From a virus, in the IMG/VR virus record IMGVR_UViG_3300042868_010462, positions 83,875 to 147,874 of that record: 64,000 nucleotides of DNA; one strand, written 5' to 3'. The notes under the pieces are model-generated. The model did no database searches and was not told the DNA's origin. It was given only the letters and a program-made list of their open reading frames with translations. Made by a program: the position numbers and the translations under genes. Shown here one piece after another: positions 18,037 to 63,721 of this stretch (positions are counted from its first letter, which is position 1; every line of letters begins with the position of its first letter).

Positions 18037-19503
18037 TTAAATTTTATTAAGTTGATTTTGTATTTCCTGAGAATTAGGAATATTTTTTGTTTTTAGTAAT
18101 TCAGCTATTTTTTTCGCTGTCAATCTATCCATTTTACCAATTGAGGTTGTTAATCCATTATCTGTTTGGAATTTTTTTAATTGTTCTTGTGTTTCAGCAC
18201 CAAATTTTCCATCCGCACCAAATCTAGCTAACTTATATCCTAACAATTGTAACCCATCTTGGAATGTTTTTACATTCCCTTGAATAGTGTAAGCACCAGT
18301 ATCACCTTCAAATTCAGCAACCTCTTCACCCATAAATGCTAATGATTCTGCAGATGTTTGGTCAGGGTTAGCATCAGGTATACTATTTAGTATATCATAA
18401 TTTATATCACTACCATCACTATTTAACAAATCAGCAGTTCTTTTGACAAAAAATGGAACTGCAACAGAATACCCTCTTCTACTCCAAGGTGCTCCAATGG
18501 CATCTTTCGTAAATTTCTCGATAGACATTTCTGCGGGTATTTTTTCACCATTTTTTGAAATATAAGTAACAAGTACTTTAGAATCGGTGACATTATCAAT
18601 CATTATTTTGTCCGTTTTGAAGGCAGCACCTTTTAAACGATAAGTTTTACCAGGAACAAACCCCAACTTCCTCAAAAAAAGAGGACCACTTTTTATTTTT
18701 GGTAATTTTTTAAAGAAGTTTTGCAACCTAACTTTAAGTTGTTTACTTAATGTTAGTTGTCCTAGTTCTTTTGCTGTTGTTTTCAACAAACCAGGTTTTT
18801 TAACAACATCATCGGCAGTGGCTTTAACTCCAGGTGTTTTTGTACCTTTAGCTTTTGCCAAAACACCATCAAAAATAGTTTTTACTCTATCGTAAAATTT
18901 TTGAATATACTTGGATATATTATCTCCATGTTTACCTAAAATATTTCTAGCTAACTTTGATTGTAATGCTTTTTGAAGTAAATTTTTTATACCACCAAGA
19001 ATTGTTCCTAAATTTTTTCCAATAATTTCTAACGCGCCCAAAACAGCCTTTGAAGCAAATCCTCTACCTGTTTTTATTGCATTTTTTAAAACTGGGGCAA
19101 CAGCTTGTAGTGGACCGGGTAATATTACAAAAGCAAAAGTTATTGCTGCCATAGTGTATAGTGAATCTCTCTCCTCAGCAGGTTTAAATTGAGCTTCTAT
19201 AATGTAACTGAGGGCATTCAAAGCATCTACGATAGCTCCTGAACCGGGAATTACGAAGTCCATTCCAGCAGACAATAAATCAGCCCCTGTATGAAGAATA
19301 TCACTGATACTCCAACCTTCCATAATTGGAACTTCTTCACCTGTTTGACAAGAATATATTTTGTTTTCATACATAATATATTTTCCATCAGGTGTGTACT
19401 TACACTCTAACAATTTTTGTAAAGGTCTTACCTCATCCTTTACGATACCATATAAATTTAAAATATGACTTCTATCTGATTCAGAAATTATAAACTTTTG
19501 CAT
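18037..19503 (-). CDS. protein with hydrophobic hairpin and C-terminal peptidoglycan-binding domain
   Basis: VKTFQDGLQLLGY...GADGKFGAETQEQLKKFQ. Confidence 0.8.
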   Translation of the reverse strand: MQKFIISESDRSHILNLYGIVKDEVRPLQKLLECKYTPDGKYIMYENKIYSCQTGEEVPIMEGWSISDILHTGADLLSAGMDFVIPGSGAIVDALNALSYIIEAQFKPAEERDSLYTMAAITFAFVILPGPLQAVAPVLKNAIKTGRGFASKAVLGALEIIGKNLGTILGGIKNLLQKALQSKLARNILGKHGDNISKYIQKFYDRVKTIFDGVLAKAKGTKTPGVKATADDVVKKPGLLKTTAKELGQLTLSKQLKVRLQNFFKKLPKIKSGPLFLRKLGFVPGKTYRLKGAAFKTDKIMIDNVTDSKVLVTYISKNGEKIPAEMSIEKFTKDAIGAPWSRRGYSVAVPFFVKRTADLLNSDGSDINYDILNSIPDANPDQTSAESLAFMGEEVAEFEGDTGAYTIQGNVKTFQDGLQLLGYKLARFGADGKFGAETQEQLKKFQTDNGLTTSIGKMDRLTAKKIAELLKTKNIPNSQEIQNQLNKI

Positions 19504-19544
19504 ATTGTTTTTTTTTAATAAATACTATAAACTATTTTGTTTAA

Positions 19545-19841: not shown

Positions 19842-19884
19842 AATTTTAGTTTTGTATATAAATATTTATACAATATTTATTATT

Positions 19885-21588: not shown

Positions 21589-21864
21589 TCAAACAAAGGT
21601 AATCAGGACTTTTAATTCTTGATTACCTTTTATTACTCTATGATATACACCTTCAGGTATATAATACTTTTCACCAATAACTAATTTTTTAGGGAATTCG
21701 TTGTCCATTTGTAAAAACCAATCATCCCCATCCAATATTTCAACTAATCTATTTTCCCTATCACGATGCCATTTTAATTCCTCATCGTCAACATCAGGTG
21801 AAAATGTTCTTAATCGTTTATTACCAATTATTTCTTGTTCGAAAGGTAGTTTTTCCATTACCAA
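21589..21864 (-). CDS. cupin-like protein
   Basis: WHRD..R...IPEGVYHRV. Confidence 0.7.
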   Translation of the reverse strand: MVMEKLPFEQEIIGNKRLRTFSPDVDDEELKWHRDRENRLVEILDGDDWFLQMDNEFPKKLVIGEKYYIPEGVYHRVIKGNQELKVLITFV

Positions 21865-22484
21865 CTAGCACTTGACTTTAAACCCAATTTTTTTGCGTGT
21901 CGACCAACATTACAACTCCAATAACCAGCAGTTGTTCTATCTTTCTTTTGGTCACACTTATGTCTTGCTCTAAATGATTTTGCTGCTTTTGGATTTCTAT
22001 TTCTCACCTTTAGGTTGGGGTCACCAAATGTTACTTTCTTGATTGTTCCTTTTGGTGTTTTAACATATACCGCAAACTTTTTAGGTCCTCCTGGTGTTCT
22101 AAATGGTGAATTAAGTTTAACATTTTTTCCGTGATGTTTTGCTTCAAACAATAATTCTTCAACTTCCTCTTCATACATTGGAGCATCTAACCATACCTCA
22201 TCCCCATTTTCTAATAAAACTTTTTTACCTAAATCTGACTCAACCAACCAAGTGTCCTCTTCATTCAATTCTATTTTACCATCATAATATAAGTTTCTTA
22301 CCTCATTAATTAACTTAAAATATTTCTCAGAGTATATTCTAAAAATATTTTCATTCAATGGAATCTTATTTTCCAAATGATATTTTAAATCCTCAGAAAT
22401 CATACAATGTTCAGTCAATTTCATTACCGGATTTAGTGATTCTCTTAGAACTTTCTTTATTAAGTTATCTAACTTGGTACTCAT
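21858..22484 (-). CDS. hypothetical phage protein with basic C-terminal domain
   Basis: KKFAVYV...FGDP...SFRARHKC...YWSC. Confidence 0.75.
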   Translation of the reverse strand: MSTKLDNLIKKVLRESLNPVMKLTEHCMISEDLKYHLENKIPLNENIFRIYSEKYFKLINEVRNLYYDGKIELNEEDTWLVESDLGKKVLLENGDEVWLDAPMYEEEVEELLFEAKHHGKNVKLNSPFRTPGGPKKFAVYVKTPKGTIKKVTFGDPNLKVRNRNPKAAKSFRARHKCDQKKDRTTAGYWSCNVGRHAKKLGLKSSASW

Positions 22485-23781: not shown

Positions 23782-25647
23782 TTACTTTACTTCTTCAAAC
23801 TCTACATCTGAACCTGTAAAACCATCAGTGTTTTCAGTTTGTTCACTCACATTACTATAAAGTTCTTGGGTAATTTTTTGCATAATTGAATTAACATTAT
23901 CTAACGCAGGGTCAATTTTTTCAATTTCACCAGTGTTTTTAGCCTCTTTTAATTCCTCCAAACCTTTTTTAACTTCTTCTTTGTGTTCATCAGAGATTTT
24001 TTCATCCAAATCCTTCAAAGTTTTCTCAATATTAAAGATTGTACTATCAGCCTCATTGATTTTTTCAGCTTTTTCTTTAGCTAATTTATCACTTTCAGCA
24101 TTTTCCTCAGCTTCTCTCTTCATTCTGTCGATTTCTTCTTGTGAAAGTCCAGATGATGACTCAATTCTAATCGTTTGTTGTTTGTTTGTTCCCTTGTCTA
24201 AGGCCGAAACATTGATAATACCATTTGCATCGATGTCAAAAGTAACTTCGATTTGAGGAATACCTCTCATTGATGGTGGAATACCATCTAAATGGAATCT
24301 ACCAATAGTTCTGTTGTCTTTTGCCATTGGTCTTTCACCTTGTATTACGTGAATTTCAACAGAAGGTTGATTATCTACCGCAGTTGAGAAGATTTGTGAC
24401 TTTTTGGTTGGAATTGTTGTATTTGCTTCGATTAATCTTGTCATTACACCACCCATTGTCTCAATTCCTAATGAAAGTGGGGTAACATCCAATAAAAGAA
24501 CATCTTTTACATCACCAGCTAATACACCACCTTGAATCGCAGCACCCAAAGCAACAACTTCGTCAGGATTTACACCTTTTGACGCTTCTTTTCCGAAAAA
24601 CTTCTTAACTGCTTCTTGAATTGCAGGGATTCTAGTAGAACCACCAACCAAAATAACCTCATCAATGTCATTAATTGTCAATCCAGCGTTTTTAAGAGCT
24701 GATTTACAAGGTGCAATCGTTCTTTCAACCAATTTATCAATAATTTGTTCAAACTTTGCTCTTGTAAGTGTTTTTACAAGGTGTTTTGGTTGATTATCAA
24801 TTACCATAAAGTAAGGTAAGTTAATTTCAGTACTTTGAGATGAAGATAATTCAATTTTTGCCTTCTCAGCTGCCTCTCTTAACCTTTGGATTGCCATAGA
24901 ATCATCATTCCAAGCACCATTGTTCTCATTTTTGAACTCGTTTTTTAACCAATCAGAAATAGCATTGTCAAAGTCATCACCACCTAAGTGTGTATCACCA
25001 TCGGTTGATAATACTTCAAATACACCACCACCTAATTCTAGTACAGATACATCGTGTGTACCCCCACCACAGTCAAAAACAACGATTTTAGAGTCCTTGT
25101 TTTTCTTATCAAGACCATAAGCAAGAGCAGCTGCAGTTGGTTCATTGATAATTCTCTTAACTTTCAGACCCGCAATCTCACCAGCTTCTTTTGTTGCTTG
25201 TCTTTGAGCATCATTGAAGTAAGCAGGAACTGTGATAACGGCTTCAGTTACTTCTTGACCCAAATAATCTTCAGCAGTTTGTTTCATTTTCTGTAACACC
25301 ATTGCTGAGATTTCTTGAGGTGAGAATTGTTTATCATCAATCTCTACTCTTGGGGTGTTGTTTTTCCCTTTTACGACCTTATAAGGAACTCTCTTAACCT
25401 CTGACTTGGTTTCGTCATAATTTGAGCCCATAAAGCGTTTGATTGAATAAATTGTTTTGTCAGGATTGGTTACAGCTTGTCTTTTTGCTGGGTCTCCAAT
25501 CTTTCTTTCACCATTGTCAACAAATCCAATGATTGAAGGGGTTGTTCTTTTACCTTCATTGTTTGTTATTACAATTGGTTCTCCATTTTCCATTACGGCT
25601 ACACACGAGTTTGTAGTCCCTAAATCGATTCCAATAATTTTACTCAT
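23782..25647 (-). CDS. dnaK: molecular chaperone DnaK (Hsp70)
   Basis: [47 protein letters not shown]. Confidence 0.98.
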
Positions 25648-25852
25648 ATTTTGTTCGTTTTTGTTTGAATTATATTGTTTATTTTTTATGTAGTCAATTC
25701 TACTCACAAACATTTGTTATAAAAAATTAATCCAAACCTTTTTAACCTGACAAATTGTCAGTTTTAATGACAAAACATAATTTTTTTTATTATTTTTATA
25801 AAAAAATTGATTTTTCTAAAATCTTATCGTATTTATTCCTAAAAGAAAAAAA

Positions 25853-30311: not shown

Positions 30312-31115
30312 ATGTTAAAAATCGGTTCACAAGGAGAATTAGTTAAACAACTCCAAACAAAATTAGGCGTTACTGCCGATGGTGCATTCGGTCCTGGTAC
30401 TGACAAAGCACTTAAAGAATGGCAAACTAAAAATGGTTTAGTTGCTGATGGTATTGCAGGTCCTGCAACACTTGAGAAAATGGGGGTATCTCTTCCAAAA
30501 GTCGAAAAAGAGACATTAAAATTGGACAAACTTAAAGGACAAATTCCTGATTCAGTAATCAATGAAATTAATGCCAATGGTGAAAAGTTCGGTATTATCA
30601 CGAATTTGAGATTGACACACTTTTTAGCACAATGTTCAACAGAATCAGGTAACTTCAAAGCTGTTAATGAGAATCTTAATTACTCAAAGGATGGTTTGAT
30701 GAAAATTTTTCCAAAGTATTTTCCTGGTAACTTAGCTGAATCTTACGCTTATAAACCTGAGAAAATTGCATCTCGTGTTTATGGAAGTAGATTGGGTAAT
30801 GGTGATGAAACAACTAAAGAAGGTTGGAAATATCGTGGAGCAGGTTTTATACAGTTGACAGGAAAAGACAACTTCAAAAAATTTGGTGAGTTTTTAGGTG
30901 AAGATTTAGTAACAAATCCAGACTTAGTTGCAACGAAATACCCTTTAACTTCCGCAGCATTCTTTTTCAATAGTAACAATCTTTGGTCTGTTTGCGACCG
31001 TGGTACTGGTGAAGATGTTGTAACAGAAGTAAGTAGAAGAGTAAATGGTGGATTCAATGGTTTAGACCACAGAAAACACGAGTTCAAAAGATTCGAAAAA
31101 TTACTTTTAGCTTAA
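30312..31115 (+). CDS. endolysin: PG-binding domain plus GH19
   Basis: ADGAFGPGT; HFLAQC..ES; YRGAGFIQLTGKDN; VNGGFNGL. Confidence 0.9.
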   Translation: MLKIGSQGELVKQLQTKLGVTADGAFGPGTDKALKEWQTKNGLVADGIAGPATLEKMGVSLPKVEKETLKLDKLKGQIPDSVINEINANGEKFGIITNLRLTHFLAQCSTESGNFKAVNENLNYSKDGLMKIFPKYFPGNLAESYAYKPEKIASRVYGSRLGNGDETTKEGWKYRGAGFIQLTGKDNFKKFGEFLGEDLVTNPDLVATKYPLTSAAFFFNSNNLWSVCDRGTGEDVVTEVSRRVNGGFNGLDHRKHEFKRFEKLLLA

Positions 31116-38445: not shown

Positions 38446-38457
38446 AAATATTAAATT

Positions 38458-42075: not shown

Positions 42076-42160
42076 AAATGAATTTTACAATAAATATCAC
42101 AAATAAAAATCCCCACCTTATTGATGGGGATGTGTCTGATAAATAGTTTAAAATTTATAA

Positions 42161-46100: not shown

Positions 46101-47171
46101 TTACACAAAATTACTAGTACCTTGAGCCCCAAGTGATTGAGGAGATGGGCATACCTCACTATTTAACATTTTATCGAAATAATTTTTAGAATTATCAACC
46201 AAATAGTTCTCATTGGATTCTGATAATACAAAAACTTTAGCTTTATCCCAATATTTTTGTAAAATATTCAAAAATTCTGTTGTTAAATTTATGCAACCAT
46301 ATGATAAATCTAAATTTAAACCACCAGTGGATACCGCATTTATAAATTCCTTTTTTGCCTCAGGGTTTTTAACATCTCCCAAAAACTTTTTTGCCTTTTG
46401 TAATACTAATGTTCGTGGTTGTTCTAGGTAATAACCATGAATTGCTTGTGTGTATTGTTTGTTATTTTGAACCAAATGTTTTATATTATTTATCTTTCCC
46501 GCATACGATGCGTCACTCGTAATCGTACCCATATCATAAACACCAGGAGAGGTAAACCTCTTGTTATTTCTATCTATCCAATCATACACATAATCATGAT
46601 TGTATTTTCTATTCTGACTTGTTTGGTCAACATATCCCTTACCATTAATCCATTTAAAACCCGCTTTGATAGCTGACTCATCCCAAGATAACATAGCATT
46701 TGCTATATCCGTAGGGTTAGTGGGTTGTTTGTTTTTTCCTGAAATAATTACATCTTTCGCAATAAAATTACCATTCGGGTCAAACAGATATATCAATTGA
46801 TTTAAAGTGTCAACTACAATCAAATTATAAGTTCTCATCAATGGTCTAATACAATTCAAAGCAATTTCACAAGAAATTCTATCATTCTTTATTGTTTTAT
46901 AATACATTTCAGCTCTTTTATTTATTAAATTATTAATATAATTCCAAATAGTTGTATCAACTGTAATCGATGGTAAATTAAGTTGTTTTTTGTAAAAATC
47001 GTAAATATTTTCAATATCAACAATTTGTTTAGAGTCCTTATTAATATAAGGACAAAATTGTTTTTGTCTCTCTGATGATTTTTTAATTTCAGGTTTTGAT
47101 TCTTGTTCACTCAAAATACCATACAATAATTTGATTAAAACCTTTTCCTCCTCCGTAATTCTAACTTTCAT
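46101..47171 (-). CDS. L,D-transpeptidase (YkuD)-like protein with leader
   Basis: VVD...IYLF...ISGK; AIHG...SYGCINL. Confidence 0.7.
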   Translation of the reverse strand: MKVRITEEEKVLIKLLYGILSEQESKPEIKKSSERQKQFCPYINKDSKQIVDIENIYDFYKKQLNLPSITVDTTIWNYINNLINKRAEMYYKTIKNDRISCEIALNCIRPLMRTYNLIVVDTLNQLIYLFDPNGNFIAKDVIISGKNKQPTNPTDIANAMLSWDESAIKAGFKWINGKGYVDQTSQNRKYNHDYVYDWIDRNNKRFTSPGVYDMGTITSDASYAGKINNIKHLVQNNKQYTQAIHGYYLEQPRTLVLQKAKKFLGDVKNPEAKKEFINAVSTGGLNLDLSYGCINLTTEFLNILQKYWDKAKVFVLSESNENYLVDNSKNYFDKMLNSEVCPSPQSLGAQGTSNFV

Positions 47172-47241: not shown

Positions 47242-47859
47242 TTAAACCAACCTTCTAATTATTTCTCGTATCTTGGCTTCAGATATATTTGTACCTCCAC
47301 CATCCAACTTATCAGTAAAACCTTTCAACTTATCAAATGCTGGATGAGAAGATATTGGTTCTTTTTTTGCATCCTTCATAACATCCCAAGTTGATGGCTT
47401 AATCTTCATATGGTTTTTAACCAAATATTTTATTTCATCAACATCAGTTCCTTCATAAGATTCAACCCAATCTCTAAATTGTTCAACATATTTTTCTGAT
47501 TTATCTTCATGTCCATATGCGGTAGGTTCTCCTGTCTTAGGATTAATTCCATAGGTATCCATTTTACCCAAATCATGAAATAATGCGGTCATTATCATAT
47601 TGGGGTCATCAGGATAATGATGATACGCCCTCTTGATTACAACCAAAATATGTTTTAATGAATTACCCTCAGGATGCCATTTTGGATTCTGTTTTGCATC
47701 CCATTGTTTGAATAATAATTCTTTTAATTCTTGGGGTAAATCATCATATAATTCTCTATACGATTTTGGAAATTCTTTTTTGTTTTCTTCCATTTCATTT
47801 ATTGTTTGTTTAACCAAACTTAATAAATCTCTTTCAGTTAGTCTAATTATTTTTTTCAT
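47242..47859 (-). CDS. HD-domain protein with RLTE leader
   Basis: QNPKWHPEG...H...ALFHDLGK...GH...HM, as in the HD domain of CCA-adding enzymes. Confidence 0.85.
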   Translation of the reverse strand: MKKIIRLTERDLLSLVKQTINEMEENKKEFPKSYRELYDDLPQELKELLFKQWDAKQNPKWHPEGNSLKHILVVIKRAYHHYPDDPNMIMTALFHDLGKMDTYGINPKTGEPTAYGHEDKSEKYVEQFRDWVESYEGTDVDEIKYLVKNHMKIKPSTWDVMKDAKKEPISSHPAFDKLKGFTDKLDGGGTNISEAKIREIIRRLV

Positions 47860-47862
47860 ATT

Positions 47863-48911
47863 TTAGTTTTTATTTATAAAGTCATTATATACATTCTCAT
47901 CAAAGAAAAATCTACCCCCCAATTCCACAGAATTAACACCATAGTCATATCTATAATCATTATCAAGATATGCCTTGATTAAATCACCACCATCCACAGT
48001 TATGGTTACCAATGGAGAACCCTTTTTTTCATATGAAACATCATCATCCACCCTTTCCTCATTTCCCTCACCAATATATTCAAAGTCATCATTCATAAAA
48101 CCCAATAACATATCAACCTCTTGCTTTAATCTTTCAGGATTTATATAATCACCATAGTTAGAAAAGAAATCATCAATTTCATCCTTAAATTGTTCATAGG
48201 TAGGATATTCACTTGATTCATCATCATTTGTCATTTCAAATTCATCATCACCATCCATTTCCATTAATGGTTTTACATTTCCCAAACTTGATTTCAATAA
48301 TTTATTGAATTTTTGTGTTTCAACAATCAAGGAATTATTATATTGTTCCAAGATTCTATTTTTTTCTTCACCAGATAAATCGTTTAATAAATGTTTCATA
48401 ATTTTTTATTTATAAATATATTTTATTTCAAAAAAGGGGTTGGGGATTGAATACGACCGAAGGGAGAAAAATTATATTATAATAACCCCATTATCGATTT
48501 AATCTCCATCTTCAATTTATCAAAATCAGGCATCTTAAAATAACCCTGCCATACCAATGTCTTCCCATTCTCCATATTCATTGTCGTACCCACTCCATTA
48601 ATTAATTTCTTTGACAGTTCAACATTAGATGTGGGACTAGTAACAAACAAACGATATGTACTCTCATCATCAACAATCTTAGGTCCAACCTTCAACTCTA
48701 ATTCCCCACCATTCTTACCCTTATAATATAATTGATTGTTGACAAAAACCATCCCCAATTCCTTACCAATCTTTTCCATATCAATCTTACCTTGAAAGGT
48801 GGGAACACCAGGAGGAGCTTGGTCAATATACAAATCAACATTCTGCTCAGAAATTATTCTATTTACCAATTTAATTAATTCACCCTCTGTTAATCTTATA
48901 ATTCTTTTCAT
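47863..48911 (-). other. two leader-bearing hypothetical proteins
   Basis: ORFs 47863-48399 and 48477-48911, each with TATTTATA upstream. Confidence 0.7.
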
Positions 48912-49019
48912 AAATCAATTTTAATATAAATATACAAAATTAAAAAGGGGCTGGGGATTTGAATACGAGTGAAACGAGAAAATATAAAACCCCACTCTAT
49001 AATGAATGGGGAAACTAAT

Positions 49020-53022: not shown

Positions 53023-53475
53023 ATGAAACTAATAATAACTGAAGAACAATATAGATTACTGATTGAGAATGAAGATGGTAAGAATCTTATTGATTTAACA
53101 TCATTTGAGAATTTGAAACCATCAGCTTTGGATGATATGTTTTTACATATTAATAAAAAGAAGGGTGGGAAGTATGATGGATATTATATTGATGGGGATT
53201 TGGATTTATATGAAAGAGAGGCCGATGTTACCACTTTGGATTATTTGGTTAAGGTTGGTGGTAATCTTTATTTGGCAAATACAAAAATAGAATCTTTACC
53301 AAGATTGACTGAGGTTGGTGGTTTTTTGAATATAACAAAAACCAAAATAAAATCATTACCAAAGTTATCATCGGTTGGGGGTTATTTGGCTTTACTTTTT
53401 ACTCCCCTCTCTAAGAAGATTAGTAAAGAAGAATTGGAGAAACAAATAAATGTTGGAAGAGAAATATATCTATGA
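53023..53475 (+). CDS. LRR-like repeat protein with MKLIITEEQ leader
   Basis: L..VGG.L.L..T.I.SLP repeats. Confidence 0.8.
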   Translation: MKLIITEEQYRLLIENEDGKNLIDLTSFENLKPSALDDMFLHINKKKGGKYDGYYIDGDLDLYEREADVTTLDYLVKVGGNLYLANTKIESLPRLTEVGGFLNITKTKIKSLPKLSSVGGYLALLFTPLSKKISKEELEKQINVGREIYL

Positions 53476-54065
53476 AACTAATAATAACTGAAGAACAATA
53501 TAGATTAATCATTGAGAATGAAAATGGTGGTAAGTTATTTACTATACCAACTGAATTAATAAAGGATGAAGAAGGTATTGATAAACTATTCACATTATAT
53601 CATAAAACTAAATCTAAAAAAGGTTGGGTTGGTATAAAGATTTTGGGTGACTTGAACTTGAGAATAATGAACTTTGACGATACTTTTCACTTATTTAGTT
53701 TATTACCTGAAATTGTTTATGTTAAGGGAAATATTTTATTACCTGAATATGATTTTGATTTCGATTTTAATAAATTGGAATATGTTGGTGGTAGTTTTAG
53801 AGGTCATTTGACAGGTGAAGTGTTATTACCAAAATTAAAAAAGGTTATGGGGTTTTTATCGTTATCTGTTAGTAATCTTACATCATTACCCGAACTAGAA
53901 TATGTTGGAGGTGGTTTGAATTTGAGGCAAACACAGATAAGTGAATTACCAAAATTAAAATATGTTGGTGAGGCAATGAGCTTGATGGGGACACCCTTTG
54001 CTAAGAAAACAAATAGAGAGGAACTAAGAAATAAAATACAAGTAGGAGGAAATATATTATTATGA
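53472..54065 (+). CDS. LRR-like repeat protein (paralog)
   Basis: Same leader and repeat. Confidence 0.8.
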   Translation: MKLIITEEQYRLIIENENGGKLFTIPTELIKDEEGIDKLFTLYHKTKSKKGWVGIKILGDLNLRIMNFDDTFHLFSLLPEIVYVKGNILLPEYDFDFDFNKLEYVGGSFRGHLTGEVLLPKLKKVMGFLSLSVSNLTSLPELEYVGGGLNLRQTQISELPKLKYVGEAMSLMGTPFAKKTNREELRNKIQVGGNILL

Positions 54066-54712
54066 AACTAATAATAACTGAAGAACAATTAAGATTGATT
54101 ATTGAAAGTGAGGGTGATGGTAAATTATTTAATGTGCCTAATGCTTTTTTACAAACAATAGGTGGTGTAACTAAGACCTTAAATCTTTATAACAAATTAA
54201 AAGATGTTAAAGGATTTGATGGAATTAAGGTTATTGGTAAATTGGATTATTATGAGATTGACGCTGATGATAATGATGACTTGGATAATTTCACCAATGA
54301 GGTTGTTTATATTGATGGAACTTTAATTTTGGCTGAAGAAAATCCTGATAATAATTTCGGTAAATTGAAAGTTATTGATGGTAATTTGAGAGGTTCTGAG
54401 GTTGATAATATTTCATTCCCCAATTTGGAATATGTAACTGGTGATGTTAGTTTGGAAGATAGTGGTATTAGTGAATTACCGAAACTGAAAGAGGTTGATG
54501 GTTGTTTATATTTACAAAGAACAGGTATTCATTCATTACCAGAATTGAAATCTGTTGGATTACATTTGAATCTTTATAACACAATTATTAAGGATTTACC
54601 TAAGTTAGAAATTGTTCAGGGTGTATTGACATTGAGACATACACCTTTAGCTGATAAAAAAAATGAAGAGAAACTAAGAAAAATACAAGTAGGAGGACAT
54701 CTTAATTTATGA
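54062..54712 (+). CDS. LRR-like repeat protein (paralog)
   Basis: Same leader and repeat. Confidence 0.8.
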   Translation: MKLIITEEQLRLIIESEGDGKLFNVPNAFLQTIGGVTKTLNLYNKLKDVKGFDGIKVIGKLDYYEIDADDNDDLDNFTNEVVYIDGTLILAEENPDNNFGKLKVIDGNLRGSEVDNISFPNLEYVTGDVSLEDSGISELPKLKEVDGCLYLQRTGIHSLPELKSVGLHLNLYNTIIKDLPKLEIVQGVLTLRHTPLADKKNEEKLRKIQVGGHLNL

Positions 54713-55281
54713 AAATAATAATAACAGAAGAACAATATAGATTATTGATTGAGGGTGAGGGTAGATTACTTCCTGTACCTGAAGATATGTGGAATCAAGA
54801 TGGTGGTATTACAAAGATTTATAGTTTATTTGACAAGACCAAGGACACTAAGAATTGGGTTGGTATAAAGGTAATTGGTGATTTGAGTTTAACATATGAG
54901 GATGACGAACATCTTAAAGATTTCTGTGAATACTTAGTTGAGGTTACAGGTGATTTTGAAATGTCAAACAGAAAAAGATTTGAATTTCCTTTATTAATTA
55001 AAGTTGATGGTGATGTTAATATTGCGAACTCGGATATTGATTTTCCAAAATTGAGATATGTTGGGGGTGATTTTAGAGGAAGAGGAAGTGATACTGAGGA
55101 ACTACCTGAATTGGAATATGTTGGTGGGTCATTATCATTAAGAGAAACTTTTATTCAGGATTTGCCAAAATTGAAATATGTTGGTGATGTATTGAATATT
55201 ATGGATTCATCCCTCTCTAAGAAAACTACTGAGAAAGAATTAAGAAGTAAAATAAATGTTGAAGGAAACATATGGTTATGA
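54709..55281 (+). CDS. LRR-like repeat protein (paralog)
   Basis: Same leader and repeat. Confidence 0.8.
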   Translation: MKIIITEEQYRLLIEGEGRLLPVPEDMWNQDGGITKIYSLFDKTKDTKNWVGIKVIGDLSLTYEDDEHLKDFCEYLVEVTGDFEMSNRKRFEFPLLIKVDGDVNIANSDIDFPKLRYVGGDFRGRGSDTEELPELEYVGGSLSLRETFIQDLPKLKYVGDVLNIMDSSLSKKTTEKELRSKINVEGNIWL

Positions 55282-56004
55282 AGTTAATAATTACAGAATC
55301 TCAATATAAGGAACTTAATAAGATTGATGATATCTATGATGGTTTAGACCCATATTATCGTAGGAGGATTGATTATATTGATATAAAGGACGATATTGAT
55401 ATGAGGATTGGATTTAGGCAAGTTTTTCCTTCTCAAAGGGAAGCTTTGCACGGGCGTATGAATGTTCTTAAGAAAAGTCCTCGTGGTATTGATGGACATA
55501 TCGATGATATAATTCATAATGTTGTTTGGAGTACAATACCTGATGAGTGGGGTGGAAGTGAAGATGAAAGATTATTTGATTATGTTAATGAAATGACAGA
55601 TAGAGTTAAAAAGAAATATCGTGGTTATATAATGGGTAAATTACTTAAAATGCTTGAAGATGAGGATAATAATTAATGAATCTCAATATGACGAACTAAA
55701 TAAGATTGATGATGTCTATGATGGATTGAAACCTTATTTTAGGAGGAGAATTAAATATATTAATATTCCTGAGGCAATTGATAGGGTAATTAAAAATATT
55801 GACAGATTTTATGATAAGACCGCGACATTTCATTATTTAGTTACAAGGGTTATTAGTAATGTCGTATGGGAAACTATACCTGATGAAATGGGTGCAAATA
55901 CTAATATGGAATTATTTGAATATCACGATACAATGGCCGCCAACATAATGGACAAGTATGGTGAATACATTAAAAGATTGGTTAGAAAAAGAATGGATAA
56001 ATGA
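55278..56004 (+). other. tandem paralog pair of leader-bearing proteins
   Basis: 55278-55676 and 55660-56004 share ELNKIDD.YDGL.PY.RRRI and NVVW.TIPDE. Confidence 0.75.
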
Positions 56005-56576
56005 AGGTAATAATAACTGAAGAACAATTTGATAAGTTCACAACTAAGATTAGACAACTAATTGACAACCAAGGTTTTATTGAGGCGAGTGAAATGATGG
56101 GTATCAATAAATTGAAGCTTGCTGAAATGAGTAATCTTCCTATAAAAGGTGATATCAGAGATTCAAGATTTACTGATGATAATGAAATTGTTGCAAGTGA
56201 TTTGTTGTCTGATTTGGTAAAGAAAGATGACAAATATAAAACTTGTAATCTTGAATATTTTATTGATGGAGTATTATTGTGGGAATGTAGATTTAAGGAT
56301 GAGGAAAATTATTATTATGTTGGTGTTGATGCAACACCATATTGGGCGGGTTATGAGAAAACACAAGTATCTATAACAAATATTCATATAGCACCAATTG
56401 ATTCACCTGAGGACAAAGAAGAATATGTAATAAACATATATGATGAAGAGTTTGATTGTCCTAAATCATTTGAAAATGTGAGTGAATTTGTTGATTGGTT
56501 TGAGAATGAATATAAACCAAAAACATATAATTACATTAAAACTTTACTTGATAGATTTAAAAAAGAACAATTATGA
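56001..56576 (+). CDS. leader-bearing hypothetical protein (paralog of 57346)
   Basis: Shared NKLKLAE.S.LPIKGD, ATPYW.G, FDCPKSFEN. Confidence 0.8.
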   Translation: MKVIITEEQFDKFTTKIRQLIDNQGFIEASEMMGINKLKLAEMSNLPIKGDIRDSRFTDDNEIVASDLLSDLVKKDDKYKTCNLEYFIDGVLLWECRFKDEENYYYVGVDATPYWAGYEKTQVSITNIHIAPIDSPEDKEEYVINIYDEEFDCPKSFENVSEFVDWFENEYKPKTYNYIKTLLDRFKKEQL

Positions 56577-57346
56577 AAATAATAATAACTGAAGAACAAC
56601 ATAGATTGATTAAAGAATCAAAAGGAAAATTGGCCAAGATTAGTTTGAAATCTTTACCTGGTGATTCTAATGAAGAGAGATATCTTAACTTTATGAAACT
56701 ATATAAGAAGGCCAAGGAAGCTAAAGGTTTCACTGGTATTCATATCATTGATGATTTGAACTTGAGCACGGCATTTATTAAATCATTGGGTGAGATTAAG
56801 AAAATTGATGGTGATTTATATTTAAGATTTTCATTTGTTGAAGACCTTGGTGATTTGGAATATGTTGGTGGTAATGTGTATTTGAAAGGGTCTGACCATT
56901 TAAAATCTCTTGGTAATCTTAGAGAAGTTGGTGGTGAATTGTCTATTGAAGATTGTGTTGAATTGGAAGATTTGGGTCAATTGGAAACTGTTAAAACCAT
57001 TAAAGGATTGGAGACCACAAAGGTTACAAGTTTGGGTAATCTTAAAGAAATTGGTTATCTTTGGGGAGGTAATGATGTAGATATTACCGAAAATATTAAA
57101 TCATTGGGTGAGTTGAGAAAGGTTGAAAAGTATCTTGATTTAAGTAAAAGTAAAATTGAAACTTTGGGTAACTTGGAATATGTTGGTGATTGGTTAGATT
57201 TAACCGATTCTCGAGTAGAAGATTTGGGTAATTTGAAGTTTGTTGGTTCTAGTATGAGTATATGGAGAACTCCATTATCTAATAAATATGACCCCAATGA
57301 AATCGAAGAAATGGTTGATATTCAAGGGGTATTAAATTACGACTAA
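56573..57346 (+). CDS. LRR-like repeat protein
   Basis: LG.LEYVGG.L.L repeats; MKIIITEEQ leader. Confidence 0.8.
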   Translation: MKIIITEEQHRLIKESKGKLAKISLKSLPGDSNEERYLNFMKLYKKAKEAKGFTGIHIIDDLNLSTAFIKSLGEIKKIDGDLYLRFSFVEDLGDLEYVGGNVYLKGSDHLKSLGNLREVGGELSIEDCVELEDLGQLETVKTIKGLETTKVTSLGNLKEIGYLWGGNDVDITENIKSLGELRKVEKYLDLSKSKIETLGNLEYVGDWLDLTDSRVEDLGNLKFVGSSMSIWRTPLSNKYDPNEIEEMVDIQGVLNYD

Positions 57347-57912
57347 TGAAAATAGTAATTACAGAAAATCAAATGGATAAGTTTGCCCAAAAATTAAGAA
57401 TGGGTATTGAAAAACATGGGTTCACTGATACTGCCAGAATGACAGGTATGAATAAGTTGAAATTAGCTGAACTTAGTGGATTACCAATCAAAGGAGATAC
57501 ATTCCATAGTGAAAACGAAATTGTTGTTGGTGATTTACTTAGAGATTTGGTTAATCAAAATAGAGAATACAAAACTTGTGAATTACATTATTCTGGATTA
57601 GAGGGTATAGTTGAATGGAATTGTAGGTTTAAGGATGATGAAAACTATTATAGATTAACTATTGCTGCTACACCATATTGGGATGGTAATAATACACCTA
57701 TTGATATGTTTAATGTTGAAGTAACTCCAATTTACTCACCTGAGGATAAAAAAGAGTTTGAAACTATTAATGATTATTTACACGAATTCGATTGTCCTAA
57801 ATCATTTGAAAATGCTAATGAATTGATGGATTGGTTTAGGGAAATCTATATTCCAAAAACATATGATATTATTGTAAAAAGTTTAGAGGATTTTAAGGAG
57901 AGGGAATTGTAA
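57346..57912 (+). CDS. leader-bearing hypothetical protein (paralog of 56001)
   Basis: See 56001. Confidence 0.8.
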   Translation: MKIVITENQMDKFAQKLRMGIEKHGFTDTARMTGMNKLKLAELSGLPIKGDTFHSENEIVVGDLLRDLVNQNREYKTCELHYSGLEGIVEWNCRFKDDENYYRLTIAATPYWDGNNTPIDMFNVEVTPIYSPEDKKEFETINDYLHEFDCPKSFENANELMDWFREIYIPKTYDIIVKSLEDFKEREL

Positions 57913-58779: not shown

Positions 58780-59727
58780 TTACCATTGTCTATTATGTAT
58801 GTTGATTGAGTCAATAACATCTATTTTAACATTACCATATTTTTTCAATTCGTGTTTCAGCTCATATATAAATTGATTTTCGTCAATATATCTAAGATAT
58901 GAGTATTTTATTACAATTTGAATTGTGTTGTCACTCGTAATATCTACAACTTTTGCTTCTACTAATGCTTCTAAAAAATCACAAGTATCTATGGATATGT
59001 TCCTATCATCTATACTATCTAATTCACAGTCCTTTTTCATACCATCTATAGATTTATCAATTAGTTTTTGGAATGCTAATAGTTTTCTGTTTGAATCTTC
59101 TTTTAATGATTTCACGCCTTCGCCATCATCTGACCACATTTCTTTCTTTCCAAGTATTTCTATTGATTTGAAATCTTTACAAGCAATATTAATCAATCCT
59201 TCTTCGTGTGTTACAAAACCATTAAAACCTTTTGACTCTATGAAATCTAAAAACTTATCTGTTTCCAAGATTGCCCAAGAATCATTGAACTTGGTTAAAA
59301 AATAATATAATAATCCCACCATATCATCTTCATCTCCACCAGCATCAATATAATATTCCATTACTTCATTTATGCTATCCACACCAGTTTTTTCCCATTC
59401 ATTTAGAAAGTAACTTAGGTTGTCTTCAAACAATTCTAATACTTCATCTTTATAATCTTCCAAGGTATATTTTATACCATAATCATTAATATGTTTGAAG
59501 GTGTTGAATATTTTGTTGGGGTCAAATTGTAATTTAACTTTATATGTATATTTCCTGTCGATAAATGTGTTTGGTTCATTACTGAAGAAAAGATAGTTAG
59601 TTCTCTTGTCTTTATTGATTTGGGTGTTAAATGAATTGATATCATAATCTGAGTTGTGATAAAAAATACCACCACCTGATTCAGTTTGTTCCCTCAATAT
59701 TCTTCTTATTGTTTGTTTTAGGTTCAT
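58780..59727 (-). CDS. leader-bearing protein, possible ADP-ribosyltransferase-like N-domain
   Basis: FYH.S...F...LFFS...Y.YKVKL; GFNG...E. Confidence 0.5.
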   Translation of the reverse strand: MNLKQTIRRILREQTESGGGIFYHNSDYDINSFNTQINKDKRTNYLFFSNEPNTFIDRKYTYKVKLQFDPNKIFNTFKHINDYGIKYTLEDYKDEVLELFEDNLSYFLNEWEKTGVDSINEVMEYYIDAGGDEDDMVGLLYYFLTKFNDSWAILETDKFLDFIESKGFNGFVTHEEGLINIACKDFKSIEILGKKEMWSDDGEGVKSLKEDSNRKLLAFQKLIDKSIDGMKKDCELDSIDDRNISIDTCDFLEALVEAKVVDITSDNTIQIVIKYSYLRYIDENQFIYELKHELKKYGNVKIDVIDSINIHNRQW

Positions 59728-60417
59728 TTCTTTGTCTTTTTTGATTCATAATACCAAGAAGTATCGTTATAAGAATCTAAGGTAGAAACACCCATAGATA
59801 TACCACCTTTGAAAAAATCTTGTACTAAATCTCTAATTGTTTTTTGTATTTCTCTTCTTTTATTATGGACTTCATCAGCTTCATTCTCAGTAAAAGGTCT
59901 TTTGAATAAAACTGAAATCCTACAAACTTTTCCATAATCAGTGTCATAAATATCAACAACAACACCATAATAATTGTCGTTTTTGATTGTTTCAGGTAAA
60001 TCTGTTTCCACTTGTTTTGATATATACCTTTCCATTTTGGTTCTTTCACCAATATCAGTATATTCTTCCCTCAATATTCTTTTTATGGTTTGTTGTATAT
60101 TATTCATTACAGGTTCTTACATATTTTGATTTCATAACTATTGTTTGGTTGGTAAAATCGTAAACCAAATCCCAAGCTTCGTTCATTATTGAATCGTGTT
60201 TTTCTTTGGCATAAAACGATACTTTACCTCTATGAACGATGAATGTAAATGTTACTTCATAACTTTCTCCATCAACAGATTGTACAACCTCAACACCACA
60301 TAAAATATCTTTATTATGTTTAACTAATAGTTTATTTAACAGATTTTCAAGGATTGGTGATAAATCCTTTTGAGTTTCTTCCCTCAATATTCTTCTTATG
60401 GTTTGTTCTAATTTCAT
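59724..60417 (-). other. two small proteins with QTI.RILREE leader
   Basis: ORFs 59724-60107 and 60100-60417. Confidence 0.7.
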
Positions 60418-61817
60418 TTCTTTGTCTTTTTAACGCAATTAGGATATCTTTTACCAAACATTGTTTTCATTCCTTTTTGAGTATAATCAGGCCAACATTT
60501 TTCTGTTAATTCACCCTCTCTGATTTCCCCTTGTTTTCCCATATGACTGAATACTTTTCTAATATTTTTAGGAAGTGAATTGATTGGTATTATCTTTGCT
60601 TTGATTGTTTCTAACCCTTTTCTTATTGCTTTTTGTGCTCTGTGGTGACCATCTATGATTGATATAAATGAACCATCGTCTTCAACAAATATTAGTATTG
60701 GATATTGTAAATCGGCCTTATCTATTTTTTTTATTTCATCTTCATCACCATCCCATGATAATAGTTTTGACTTTAACTTTTCTACTGGTATCTTTTTAAT
60801 TGGAATATCTTTAGTCGCGTCTAATAAATCAATAAGAGTAATTCTATCACCTTCATCATTTTCCCAAAATGTATCGTGTAAACCTTCTTTTTGTAATCTT
60901 ATTGTCTTTTGTTTTGATTTTTCTTTTTGTGTTTCGATATAATCATAAGCTCTTTTCAATCTTTTCTTTGTCTCAGGGTCTTTGGCATTTTGATAAGCAG
61001 CTCTCACCCTTTGATGAATAAGATTAATGATTTGAGATTGTCTTTTGTGAGGTTTTGATTTGAAACTTTCTTTGTTCAAGGTATCAACAATATCCTCTTT
61101 GGTTCTAAACTTAACTGAAACTGTATCTTTTGGATTTTCGTCAGTATATAACCTTCTACTAGAACCTTCAGGTTTTTTACCAGTACCAACTTTGGGGTCA
61201 GCTTCATCAATTTCTTCTCTATTATAGGGTCTAAATCGATTGGGGTTAGCTTTGATTGCTGACTTTGGAAATCTTAGACCTGCACCTTGTTGTCTTGCAT
61301 TTTTCAAGGTTCTTGCATACTCAGACATTTCTTCATCCAATTTTTCTGTATTTGTTCTGTATTGTTTATACAAGTTTTTGAAGAAACTATTGTTTTTTAA
61401 CAAATCTCCAAATTTCAAATACAATAATTTTGGTGTATCAGGTATTATCCATTCTGTTGTTTCAAAATTAACTAATTTGGAATGGAAATCATCAATTGTA
61501 ACATCAATAATAAATTCAATAACATTATCCATTGGATTATTTTTCAATCTAGGATAAAATGTACCAGGTCTTTCTCTCATCCAAGACATTGTGTCAAATA
61601 ACGAATTTTCGAATTCTTCATCAGTAAAAATTGTTTCGAAAGGATTATATTTTTCTAATAATTCTTTTTCTGTCATATGTAACATATTAGACAATCTATT
61701 GATATCATTACCAAACATTTTTAATGTGGTAACTAATCCATACTTGTCCAAAGTTTTTTGAACTTTTTCTGCATGGGATTCTTTGAGTATTCTTTTTATT
61801 ATATTTCTTATCTCCAT
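60414..61817 (-). CDS. multi-module protein with ParB-like domain
   Basis: ADLQYPILI...IIDGHHRAQKA; RRLYTDENPKDTV module; KCWPDY..KGMK...PNCVK tail. Confidence 0.75.
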   Translation of the reverse strand: MEIRNIIKRILKESHAEKVQKTLDKYGLVTTLKMFGNDINRLSNMLHMTEKELLEKYNPFETIFTDEEFENSLFDTMSWMRERPGTFYPRLKNNPMDNVIEFIIDVTIDDFHSKLVNFETTEWIIPDTPKLLYLKFGDLLKNNSFFKNLYKQYRTNTEKLDEEMSEYARTLKNARQQGAGLRFPKSAIKANPNRFRPYNREEIDEADPKVGTGKKPEGSSRRLYTDENPKDTVSVKFRTKEDIVDTLNKESFKSKPHKRQSQIINLIHQRVRAAYQNAKDPETKKRLKRAYDYIETQKEKSKQKTIRLQKEGLHDTFWENDEGDRITLIDLLDATKDIPIKKIPVEKLKSKLLSWDGDEDEIKKIDKADLQYPILIFVEDDGSFISIIDGHHRAQKAIRKGLETIKAKIIPINSLPKNIRKVFSHMGKQGEIREGELTEKCWPDYTQKGMKTMFGKRYPNCVKKTKK

Positions 61818-63721
61818 TTTGCTTGTGGTAATAATTTCTTTCCGTGTTTAATCAATTCTTTTTTCACATATTCTTTTTCCTCAATTGAACTGAATAATTC
61901 TTCTCTTTCATCCGCCCATTCATCGATAATATCATCCATTTTCATTTTCCTTGTTTTTGCCTGAGTATAAAAACCTTGTAAATAAGCATCCTTTTCTTTT
62001 GGTGTTAATACTTCTTCGGCAAATGTATCGGTGGGTATTTCTTCGACCTTTTTATATGGATTCTCAGATTGATATAAATGTTCTATTTCGTGTCTTAATA
62101 CATCTTTTAACTCAGCAAACAATTTATTGAGATTCTCCATCTTGAAATTCGTATCAATATAAATCTGTAAATTAACAACATCTATGCTATCTTCATCGTC
62201 CCACTTTTGTTCAGCATGAATATCATATGGTGTGCGTATATCTTCAGTTATAGCTGTAAGCCTCACAGTAAAAGTAGTTGTTGAATACTGTTCTTCCTCC
62301 TCTTCGTCATCATATTCTTCATCATCCATAAAATCTTCATAGTCGAATTCTTCTTGGAAATATTCTTCCTCCCATTCAAGTTCTGTTGATTCTTCATCCC
62401 TGATGAAATCCATTAACTCTCTTTTTATATCTCTCCAAATCTGTAATATGGTTTGACTATATCTTCCTTCAGTCAAAACATCCTTGGATATTCCCATCAT
62501 TTCGTGTATTCTATTTATTTGTTCGTTCAAATTTGAATTCTTCAAATTTTTGGATGTCCTAACAAATTCATAAACATCATCACAAATTTTAATATTTTTT
62601 AAATTTTTGATTGGATAGAGGTCTCTTTTATTTTCAAAGGTTGTGAAATATTCAATATAATTTTCAACATCATAATATGAAATACAACCTAATTCCATTC
62701 TTTTCAATAACCAACTCAATTTTTCATAATTTGGATACAATTTTACCATTTTTTCAAACAATCCGTAATCCACTATTGAGGGAGCATAAATACTTTCTAA
62801 TTCATCTATTTTTGCTTGTGTTATGTTTTCAGTCCAAGCCAATCTTTCCTCCTCTTCTTTTTTTCTTTCCTCCTCTTCTTTTTTTCTTTTTTCCAATTCT
62901 TTTTCCTCTTCTTTTTTCGATAACTTTTCAAGAAAATTATTTTGAGCTTTTGGTGCTAAATCTCTTGCTATTTTCATTAGTTGTTCACAAGTATCTGAAA
63001 ATTCATCGAATTTATTATTTTTGTTTTTACACTCTGAGTCATAAAAGGGGCTAATTTGTATGGGAGTTTCAGGATTATTTTTTTGATGGAAAACAACAAG
63101 ATAATCTTTATTTATGTAGTCTACAAATTTTCGTTTATTTGTTAATGTACAAAATCTAACATAATTATTCCTATTACGATTTTCACAATCCCCCAATATA
63201 TTCTTGTATGCTTTGTACATAGGTTCATACATGTATTCGTACTCAAGATTATAGTCAAGATGAGGAATTACAAAAACTTGATATCCACTATGGACACCCA
63301 TATATTCAATAAAATTTTCATTTAGTTTTTTGATATCAGAAAAATTTATAAAATGTTCATCTTCAAATGAAATTTTATCAATTAATTCATTTGATATTGA
63401 AATAAAATTTTTGACATCTGAACAAGTTTTTATCTGACCTAAATCTTTTATTGGAAAATTTTTTTTATGTTTATCGAAAATTTTGAAATATTCCACAAAA
63501 TCAGGTATTTTATTATACGAAATACAATTTGATTCTAATTTTTTCAAAATCCATATGAATTGTTGGTATTCCTTGAATGTATTTTTCAATTCGTCAAATT
63601 TTTCTGACGTAACTATTTTTTTTTCATCGACATATTTGTACCGAACCTCATTAGGATTATATACTTCAGTAAGAAGTCCCATCATTTCGTGTATTCTATT
63701 TATTTGTTCTTGTAGTTTCAT
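61808..63721 (-). CDS. multi-module protein with internal duplication, second internal leader and zincin motif
   Basis: EQINRIHEMMG twice; duplicated W.LK..E..CISY domain; LRHEIEHLYQ...EKDAY. Confidence 0.8.
   Translation of the reverse strand: MKLQEQINRIHEMMGLLTEVYNPNEVRYKYVDEKKIVTSEKFDELKNTFKEYQQFIWILKKLESNCISYNKIPDFVEYFKIFDKHKKNFPIKDLGQIKTCSDVKNFISISNELIDKISFEDEHFINFSDIKKLNENFIEYMGVHSGYQVFVIPHLDYNLEYEYMYEPMYKAYKNILGDCENRNRNNYVRFCTLTNKRKFVDYINKDYLVVFHQKNNPETPIQISPFYDSECKNKNNKFDEFSDTCEQLMKIARDLAPKAQNNFLEKLSKKEEEKELEKRKKEEEERKKEEEERLAWTENITQAKIDELESIYAPSIVDYGLFEKMVKLYPNYEKLSWLLKRMELGCISYYDVENYIEYFTTFENKRDLYPIKNLKNIKICDDVYEFVRTSKNLKNSNLNEQINRIHEMMGISKDVLTEGRYSQTILQIWRDIKRELMDFIRDEESTELEWEEEYFQEEFDYEDFMDDEEYDDEEEEEQYSTTTFTVRLTAITEDIRTPYDIHAEQKWDDEDSIDVVNLQIYIDTNFKMENLNKLFAELKDVLRHEIEHLYQSENPYKKVEEIPTDTFAEEVLTPKEKDAYLQGFYTQAKTRKMKMDDIIDEWADEREELFSSIEEKEYVKKELIKHGKKLLPQAKWR

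Follow-up and report, generated by a model that had tools for sequence, protein, structure and literature searches.

Interchangeable N-terminal leaders ending in [I/L]-x-E on dozens of phage proteins: candidate capsid-targeting propeptides in a T4-like phage

Why should several dozen proteins that have little else in common begin with the same few N-terminal peptides? This question is raised by the window analysed here, a stretch of 64,000 nucleotides (G+C content ~30%) that forms the last 64 kb of the 147,874-bp virus record IMGVR_UViG_3300042868_010462 of IMG/VR (positions 83,875 to 147,874), and within it by the span 18037-63721. An earlier note on this DNA had described more than 30 unrelated proteins with leaders of five types (A to E) ending in I/L-x-E, and had proposed that the leaders are capsid-targeting tags removed by the prohead protease. 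The contig, which is estimated to be ~50% complete, is half of a roughly 300-kb T4-like phage, and its signal peptides and promoter motifs point to a host among the Bacteroidota. Coordinates are those of the window unless marked "genome" (numbering of the contig) or G021 (a complete relative). By analogy with phage T4, we think it probable that the leaders are removable N-terminal propeptides of the type of the T4 capsid targeting sequence (CTS).

Every start coordinate given in the earlier note carries the leader assigned to it, and class-specific hidden Markov models (HMMs) as well as N-terminal similarity show that the five classes are real. The strict census, for which the class HMMs were run at E <= 0.01 over the 195 open reading frames (ORFs) called on the contig, yielded 31 leader genes (A 6, B 13, C 6, D 3, E 3), 29 of them within 18037-63721. 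A looser network of N-terminal similarity added 12 genes with diverged leaders, giving about 43 in total. When the first 27 residues of all 195 ORFs were compared with each other, 72 pairs scored 40 or higher, compared to 2 pairs in shuffled N-termini, and the network of these 72 pairs is a single component with about 43 genes. From residue 31 on, the 43 proteins fall into 37 groups that are distinct by BLAST, and the only paralogues among the cargo are three small families, all located in the tandem series of class B genes at 53023-57912. The count of more than 30 unrelated proteins was therefore roughly right, apart from these families. The leader genes cluster in the final 48 kb of the contig, and some of them lie beside capsid, portal and tail genes. 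The leaders are amphipathic and charged, and they lack the hydrophobic core of about 10-15 residues that follows a basic N-terminus in Sec or lipoprotein signal peptides; the true signal peptides in the window sit on other genes, which have no leader. Leaders are also absent from the Hsp70, the IMPDH/GMP-reductase-type protein and the FKBP/SlyD-type protein, as had been claimed, and the identities of these three were confirmed by Pfam.

The strongest new evidence comes from leaders that, judged from the alignments, are interchangeable between relatives and joined to their cargo at the putative protease motif. The cargo of 18037-19503 carries a C leader here and has an orthologue with an A leader in G021, and a zinc ribbon module is found behind D or E leaders. 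The HExxH module of 61808-63721 is located behind an internal D leader here and stands alone behind a B or E leader in relatives; in every case, [I/L]-[T/N]-E directly precedes its conserved G-R-Y-S start. Similarly, a module of 60414-61817 (GTGKKPEGS) is a stand-alone class A-tagged gene in contig L065, and the internal I-D-E joint of the polyprotein aligns to the I-S-E leader end of the L065 gene. The joint of 21858-22484 reads L-L-E. Internal leader copies are present in 61808-63721, in 60414-61817 and in several of the top matches of the class A profile, and [I/L]-x-E is found at the leader end in all five classes as well as at the cargo junctions. An automatic test placed 9 of 24 internal homology boundaries beside [I/L]-x-E with 5.2 expected (p about 0.05), but it is noisy, with repeat proteins and high-scoring segment pairs running into the leader, and we therefore rely on the curated junctions.

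One tag that is common to many unrelated proteins might also be what a modifying enzyme recognises, as with RiPP leaders or radical-SAM systems. The swapping of five leader classes on the same cargo argues against this, and the radical-SAM domain (PF04055) was found neither in the contig nor in four near-complete relatives, whereas 14 of 14 control genomes were positive. We consider such a recognition sequence hardly credible.

Where the conserved peptide ends can be seen most clearly in class A. A degenerate DNA pattern for its first 12 residues was found in more than 116 viral contigs and in 5 contigs among 185,579 prokaryote genomes, all of which are metagenome bins, three of them labelled Bacteroid-. 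In the 135 non-redundant proteins among the matches listed, ten more residues are conserved beyond the pattern, resulting in the consensus MKKIIRLTESDLxRIVKRVIxE, and [ILVM]-x-E stands at the end of the leader in 134 of them. In 119 non-redundant class A leaders of other contigs, each position up to residue 20 carries about 3-4 bits of information; residue 21 has 1.2 bits, Glu22 3.6 bits and residue 23 1.5 bits, and from residue 24 on the value stays under 0.5 bits. The conserved block stops exactly at I-x-E, and the middle position is free. On the contig itself, 42 of the 43 leader proteins have at least one [I/L]-x-E within the first 30 residues, compared to 56 of the 152 other proteins, and 25 have at least two (10 of the 152 others), counts that are not independent since leaders of the same class are related. 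The second site is located near residues 7-9 in most leaders.

The leader family is widespread. The earlier note had suggested leader HMMs across the genome and its relatives, and in public data the class A profile matched 8,926 representatives of protein clusters built at 50% identity with E <= 0.001, of which 1,177 reached E <= 1e-10. Tblastn searches of 50,697 cultured-phage records, one with a class A protein and one with a 30-residue leader, gave no match at E values up to 10, and neither did a nucleotide search of the same records with the window segment 13663-16938, which contains no leader gene.

The search for the prohead protease, likewise proposed in the earlier note, was successful: a gp21-type S77 protease is encoded on the contig together with a Gp23-family major capsid protein (MCP) and a T4-type portal (Table 1). 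The protease aligns to T4 gp21 (PDB 5JBL) at E 1.4e-14, is ~40% identical to the gp21 of cyanophages and has the Gp23 and Portal_T4 genes adjacent to it. The N-terminal region of the MCP retains an I-N-E|A site, which we take to be the counterpart of the L-T-E|A maturation site of T4 gp23. Leader-type genes are part of this head module. Two C-like leader genes are located directly downstream of the MCP gene, and a conserved 238-aa gene beside the portal opens with an E-like leader whose last residues are L-L-E. In G021 the place between the 238-aa gene and the protease, which is that of the T4 core genes 67 and 68, is taken by a class B gene. The S77 protease was found in nine of ten near-complete contigs with class A leaders; the tenth also lacks a capsid gene, so that its head module is simply off the contig.

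Between the protease and capsid genes, at the position of T4 gene 22, lies a gene for a 516-aa protein (genome 54762-56312, minus strand) with an Asp/Glu/Met-rich repeat region of roughly 250 residues, and the conserved helical parts at its two ends recur in G021. A complex prediction that combined the class A leader alignment with the 238-aa protein of the head module and with the conserved C-terminal portion of this scaffold-position protein gave no answer (score 0.00, run without controls).

Promoter motifs place the leader genes with the structural genes. A phage motif, ATATTTAT(A), is located ~20-25 nucleotides before the ATG of the protease, TerL, the acidic gene at the scaffold position, tail-fibre-like genes and a leaderless endolysin; in G021 it is also present upstream of the portal and of a 1,107-aa ORF whose N-terminus we judged by eye to be tail-sheath-like. 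The same motif precedes 18 of the 43 leader genes here, 19 of 29 in G021 and 81 of the 135 class A genes of other contigs listed, compared to about 2% of random windows. Many leader genes without the motif are arranged in tight tandem arrays and need no promoter of their own. The TAnnTTTG motif of the Bacteroidota type was found upstream of signal-peptide and other genes; it precedes only one leader gene here, none in G021 and two of the class A genes of other contigs listed. In G000 and G021 together, leader genes carry 37 phage-type and 1 host-type motif, and other genes 80 and 38 (Fisher p 7e-5). The earlier note had held that leaders found equally often on early genes would speak against a capsid tag, and this distribution is far from equal. 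Genes with ATATTTAT(A) would be late genes, judging from the company of structural genes. The motif is the reverse complement of the T4 late -10 element plus one base, a likeness that may be coincidence. A scan for sigma-70 promoters of the E. coli type revealed no excess (117 versus 116 expected).

Leader genes are often located behind a terminator hairpin that is followed by the promoter motif, and in the region from 31 to 50 kb 17 terminator-like sites were counted, compared to 5.7 +/- 2.5 in shuffled sequences. This arrangement allows a different explanation of the shared 5´ ends, namely that they are mobile DNA or RNA cassettes of terminator, promoter and translation start spread by recombination, with the peptide as a passenger; modular shuffling by promoter/stem-loop cassettes has been documented in T4-type phages (PMC2839356). 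The codon analysis largely refutes it. Synonymous codons vary freely in the class A leader (Leu TTA/CTT/CTA, Arg AGA/CGT/CGA), and at identical leader residues the identity is 0.64 at the third codon position versus 0.95 at positions 1 and 2; thus, the peptide is conserved and not the DNA or RNA. In addition, identity in the 40 nucleotides upstream is only 0.42, and leader copies located internally, where no translation starts, are conserved too. Passenger peptides are therefore very improbable, although the cassettes may help shuffling. The leaders are portable, selected at the protein level and restricted to phages.

Upstream of at least two neighbouring leader genes (starts 48399 and 48911; window 47860-49011, minus strand), a repeat of ~35 bp separates the terminator hairpin from the promoter motif. 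It looks like part of the terminator/promoter cassette.

Alternatively, the leaders might be a shared helical module for oligomerisation, for docking to some phage structure other than the head or for recognition by the Hsp70/FKBP chaperones of the phage, with [I/L]-x-E as a by-product of a helix rich in Ile, Leu and Glu. They are predicted amphipathic helices in an AT-rich, I/K/E-rich proteome in which [I/L]-x-E is frequent, Hsp70 and an FKBP-type protein are encoded in the window with a DnaJ-like N-terminus in G021, and a general sorting or folding tag fits the very many tagged genes better than the few internal proteins of T4 do. However, in every class the conserved block stops at the Glu with a free middle position, the polyprotein joints show the same motif where relatives have the leader end, and leader-type genes are found within the head module and have their promoter motif in common with structural genes. 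We regard another role of the helix as unlikely.

The proposal of capsid targeting and removal by a protease is supported computationally by the S77 protease, the motif at the leader end, the leader swaps, the promoter motif and the leader genes of the head module, and none of the computational tests able to contradict it did so. The leaders end at the motif cut by the head protease that the phage itself encodes, and they are therefore most probably a greatly expanded form of the T4 load-then-cut tag. Tagged proteins would be made late along with the head proteins, and the amphipathic leader would draw them into the core of the assembling prohead. The S77 protease would then cleave behind the Glu of [I/L]-x-E where the leader ends, in many cases at the second, internal site too, and in polyproteins at the internal leader copies and joints as well. 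The freed cargo would stay in the head and enter the next host cell with the DNA.

Several observations weigh against this reading. The tripeptide is frequent in the proteome, with 37% of the other proteins containing it within the first 30 residues, and the scaffold-position protein, for which an excess is expected if it is chopped up, showed no notable excess of [I/L]-x-E. The assignment of ATATTTAT(A) genes to the late phase is an association only, and the co-occurrence of leaders and protease is confounded by the shared ancestry of the contigs. With 31-43 of 195 ORFs and about 9,300 residues, the tagged set is far above the handful known from T4. Furthermore, the cargo has a median pI of 6.5, which does not set it apart from other proteins, and is not basic like the T4 internal proteins, and several cargo proteins contain hydrophobic, membrane-like segments. 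In 18037-19503 an Asp replaces the terminal Glu of its relatives, and 17497-18033 has no [I/L]-x-E in its first 30 residues, which makes it a weak member of the set. Core binding, cleavage, presence in the virion and injection are steps that we infer by analogy with T4.

The cargo itself is diverse, and the assignments of the earlier note held up in part. Lysozyme and HD domains were confirmed by Pfam, M15 and LRR remained below threshold, and an ART-like domain was not found; the YkuD-like cargo has an atlas lead of 0.88 to YkuD clusters and the catalytic motif, and the ParB-like and zincin-like assignments are based on motifs only. PG_binding_1 is solid by Pfam. The HExxH motif is invariant in five homologues of its module, for which Foldseek found no match in the PDB at E <= 0.001 and VIA-align a weak one (Z 4.4-4.6 to zinc aminopeptidase/HExxH domains over most of the model). 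A Pfam search with 56 class A proteins from the profile search revealed two stray families only. Four proteins are multi-module by homology to stand-alone genes (60414-61817, 61808-63721, 58780-59727 and 21858-22484), and most of their domains could not be assigned to a family. Five leader-tagged proteins (41389-42075, 37150-39294, 46101-47171 and 18037-19503) have domains related to peptidoglycan, either confirmed or suspected, and none of the five has an export signal.

This last group raises the possibility that the leaders are propeptides removed by a protease but carry no address. They would hold late proteins, such as the cell-wall enzymes, inactive or unassembled until the S77 or another protease cuts, and most of these proteins would never be in a capsid. 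Several cargo proteins are directed at peptidoglycan (lysozyme, PG-binding, M15- and YkuD-like) and, like endolysins, have no export signals, and the cut-site evidence alone does not show targeting. On the other hand, T4 gp21 works inside proheads on core-bound substrates (PMC9026906), most of the cargo is non-enzymatic or belongs to no known family, and a leaderless endolysin (30312-31115, plus strand; phrog_181, 9e-63) is already present under the same promoter motif. Propeptides without an address role seem quite unlikely to us.

How close the proposed capsid-targeting tag comes to known systems can be seen best with T4. There, propeptides of 10-19 residues bring unrelated internal and foreign proteins to the scaffolding core and are removed by gp21 after (L/I)-x-Glu; the internal proteins are diverse, and only the targeting sequence is conserved (PMC9026906, PMC3012670). 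In both systems, proteins otherwise unrelated begin with a short peptide ending in [L/I]-x-Glu, the phage has a T4 head module with an S77 protease of the gp21 family, and the cargo set varies between related phages. In contrast to the T4 CTS, to which they have no sequence similarity, the leaders described here form five classes of 13-30 residues, often with two sites, and mark 30-40 genes per half genome; their internal copies join polyprotein modules, and the cargo is not basic. Mullaney and Black in 1996 reportedly dealt with the CTS and propeptides of T4 IPI, IPII, IPIII, Alt and gp24, all removed by the gp21 prohead protease. The principle of such tags has been known since the 1990s; for this leader family, or for a repertoire as large, a literature search found no paper.

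Giant phages offer a second comparison. In phiKZ, 201phi2-1 and SPN3US, propeptides of ejection and inner-body proteins are cut at S/A/G-x-Glu by a gp21-related protease (PMC5694885, PMC10052503), and in SPN3US extra sites inside the propeptides are thought to yield small, easily cleared fragments, which the second leader sites near residues 7-9 recall (PMC5694885). Like these, the phage described here is a giant phage that would package many proteins and cut them after the Glu of a three-residue motif, with extra sites and with paralogues that have identical N-termini. However, their propeptides are mostly ~100 residues or longer and include no shared portable tag, the P3 residue is small, and the head module here is T4-like and not phiKZ-like.

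The cargo repertoire, with peptidoglycan enzymes, HD, ParB-like and HExxH modules and membrane-active proteins, is similar to the one predicted for polyvalent proteins. These are encoded by phages and conjugative elements and consist of several modules, and packaging and injection have been predicted for them (Iyer, Burroughs, Anand, de Souza, Aravind 2017, PMC5512222). The domains overlap (peptidoglycan-attacking, HD, ParB-like and HExxH peptidase-like domains), but most of the cargo here is single-module, the modules that do occur together are joined by a defined leader/cut-site peptide, and processing would be by the head protease instead of an embedded peptidase. The gene arrangement, finally, is similar to that of PeSLs, promoter/stem-loop cassettes that flank ORFan genes in the hyperplastic regions of T4-type phages and favour modular shuffling (PMC2839356). 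Terminator-plus-promoter cassettes also flank ORFan genes of the variable region here; the promoter, however, is of the phage (structural-gene) type and not an early sigma-70 promoter, and the conserved element extends into the coding region as a tag at the protein level.

If the leaders are indeed capsid-targeting propeptides, the proteins that a large group of uncultured Bacteroidota phages injects with its DNA could be read from the sequence alone. Thousands of mostly unknown proteins, active within seconds of the start of infection, could then be catalogued, including cell-wall enzymes, nucleases and likely counter-defence factors. The capsid-loading principle of T4 would scale to dozens of cargo types and to polyproteins that are cut apart, and additional natural targeting peptides for loading phage capsids would become available. 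How many proteins giant phages inject would become a question for virion mass spectrometry. The boldest version is possible though doubtful: the leaders might delimit a sequence-readable injectome of unprecedented size, in which ~10-20% of the lineage's genes, together with some ten thousand protein families of public metagenomes for class A alone, encode proteins that are packaged in the head and delivered to the host, the five classes perhaps being addresses that determine how many copies are loaded, where in the core they lie or in what order they are released.

The leader genes of the window and the head-module genes are listed in Table 1.

Table 1. Head-module genes and leader genes with their positions (window numbering unless marked otherwise). 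"Sites" gives the residues at which [I/L]-x-E ends.
Feature	Position	Strand	Class assignment or domain match	Sites and remarks
MCP, Gp23 family	genome 52857-54725		PF07068, 2e-73	
T4-type portal, 595 aa	contig, outside window		PF07230, 1e-77	
S77 prohead core protein serine protease (gp21-type)	genome 56719-57441		PF03420, 1e-22; phrog_207, 4e-42	
Large terminase (TerL)	contig, outside window			
Diverged C-like leader gene, 178 aa	17497-18033	-	similarity component	
Class C, 488 aa	18037-19503	-	HMM C 9e-9	I-S-E 8; hydrophobic segments, PG_binding_1 (Pfam 3e-9)
Class B, leader duplicated, 207 aa	19885-20508	+	HMM B 3e-5	I-T-E 7, 16; hydrophobic segments in cargo; phage-type promoter motif upstream
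Diverged E-like, 208 aa, two modules, internal leader remnant	21858-22484	-	similarity component	internal module has homologues that stand alone behind E or B leaders in relatives; largest [I/L]-x-E excess of the contig (z 4.7)
Diverged leader gene, 175 aa	22830-23357	+		I-K-E 8, L-M-E 21; in similarity component; phage-type promoter motif upstream
Class A, 326 aa	31896-32876	+	HMM A 2e-14	L-T-E 9, I-S-E 22; promoter motif 25 nt upstream
Class A, 125 aa	33711-34088	+	HMM A 4e-13	9, 22
Class C, 100 aa	35584-35886	-	HMM C 8e-4	L-T-E 8; promoter motif upstream; true start 35886, within longer TTG-started ORF
Class C, 431 aa	37150-38445	+	HMM C 5e-9	8, 22; M15/VanY-like (VanY, M15_4 sub-threshold, E 0.04-0.06) plus GxSxG hydrolase-like half
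Class C, 278 aa	38458-39294	+	HMM C 3e-9	9, 23; cargo muramidase-like by motif only, homologues of cargo in relatives
Diverged E-like, 152 aa	40927-41385	-	similarity component	L-L-E 11
Class B, 228 aa	41389-42075	-	HMM B 8e-9	terminator then promoter motif upstream; leader, ~90-aa linker, T4-type lysozyme (Pfam Phage_lysozyme 5e-26, residues 101-222)
Terminator-like hairpin at the head of the cassette with the lysozyme leader gene	42109-42131	-		
Class A, 303 aa	42161-43072	-	HMM A 2e-12	9, 22; amphipathic repeats and hydrophobic segment
Class B, 149 aa	43656-44105	-	HMM B 2e-8	I-T-E 7
Class B, 147 aa	44102-44545	-	HMM B 5e-3	I-S-E 7
Diverged B-like, 95 aa	44558-44845	-	similarity component	I-N-E 7
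Diverged B-like, 107 aa	44835-45158	-	similarity component	upstream terminator 45183-45205 then promoter motif
Class C, 356 aa, YkuD-like cargo	46101-47171	-	HMM C 6e-7	7, 22
Class A, 205 aa, HD cargo	47242-47859	-	HMM A 1e-12	Pfam HD 9e-5, above cut-off
Diverged C-like, 178 aa	47863-48399	-	similarity component	promoter motif 20 nt upstream
Class A, 144 aa	48477-48911	-	HMM A 1e-12	terminator 48990-49011 and promoter motif upstream
Nine class B genes in tandem	53023-57912	+	HMM B 1e-5 to 3e-10	I-T-E 7; second site 15 in five genes; three paralogue families, one LRR-like
Tandem B genes 1-5	53023-53475, 53472-54065, 54062-54712, 54709-55281, 55278-55676	+		
Tandem B genes 6-9	55660-56004, 56001-56576, 56573-57346, 57346-57912	+		
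Class D, 163 aa	57913-58404	-	HMM D 5e-12	cargo homologous to internal part of a two-module protein in L142, joint L-N-E
Class D, 125 aa	58401-58778	-	HMM D 2e-11	
Class E, 315 aa, two modules	58780-59727	-	HMM E 2e-8	C-terminal module is stand-alone D-tagged gene in L147; internal joint L-K-E
Class E, 127 aa	59724-60107	-	HMM E 4e-7	
Class E, 105 aa	60100-60417	-	HMM E 5e-8	
E-like, 467 aa, polyprotein of at least 4 modules (one ParB-like by motif)	60414-61817	-		
Class D, 637 aa, polyprotein	61808-63721	-	HMM D 2e-12	D leader copied internally near residues 398-418, ahead of HExxH module

The polyprotein 60414-61817 ends in a C-terminal module of about 28 residues (KCWxGYTQKGMKTMFGKRYPNC plus a basic tail; window 60417-60512, minus strand) that also ends other leader proteins, at least eight in all that are otherwise different (also in L141, L142, L143, L147, L148, L150, L043 and L130). 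In every case the module follows E-L-T-E, in itself a match to [I/L]-x-E, and in G021 it is located internally, with a further E leader after it. A C-terminal propeptide and a DNA-binding tail are both conceivable.

The lineage has genes for an Hsp70 of its own (window 23782-25713, minus strand; PF00012, 5e-258) and for an FKBP/SlyD-type isomerase (36255-36680, plus strand), and in G021 a protein with a DnaJ-like N-terminus, identified by eye, is located at 35743-36678. This set of chaperones might handle folding or unfolding of packaged cargo. A difference between the two genomes concerns the portal ORF, which has 1,031 aa in G021 (162873-165968, plus strand) compared to 595 aa here and suggests an insertion, possibly an intein.

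Judged by the MCP, the closest cultured T4-like phage is Flavobacterium phage vB_FspM_immuto_2-6A (NC_055915), whose MCP is 43% identical over a match confined to the C-terminal domain (query residues 377-615, 38% of the protein). In its region from 100 to 150 kb this phage (L162) has shared leaders of its own, one of the MKKSQLRxIIKE type and a second of the MEN type, on at least nine genes in 50 kb, and two of these genes are located in the head module beside the S77 protease. The phage is a possible experimental model.

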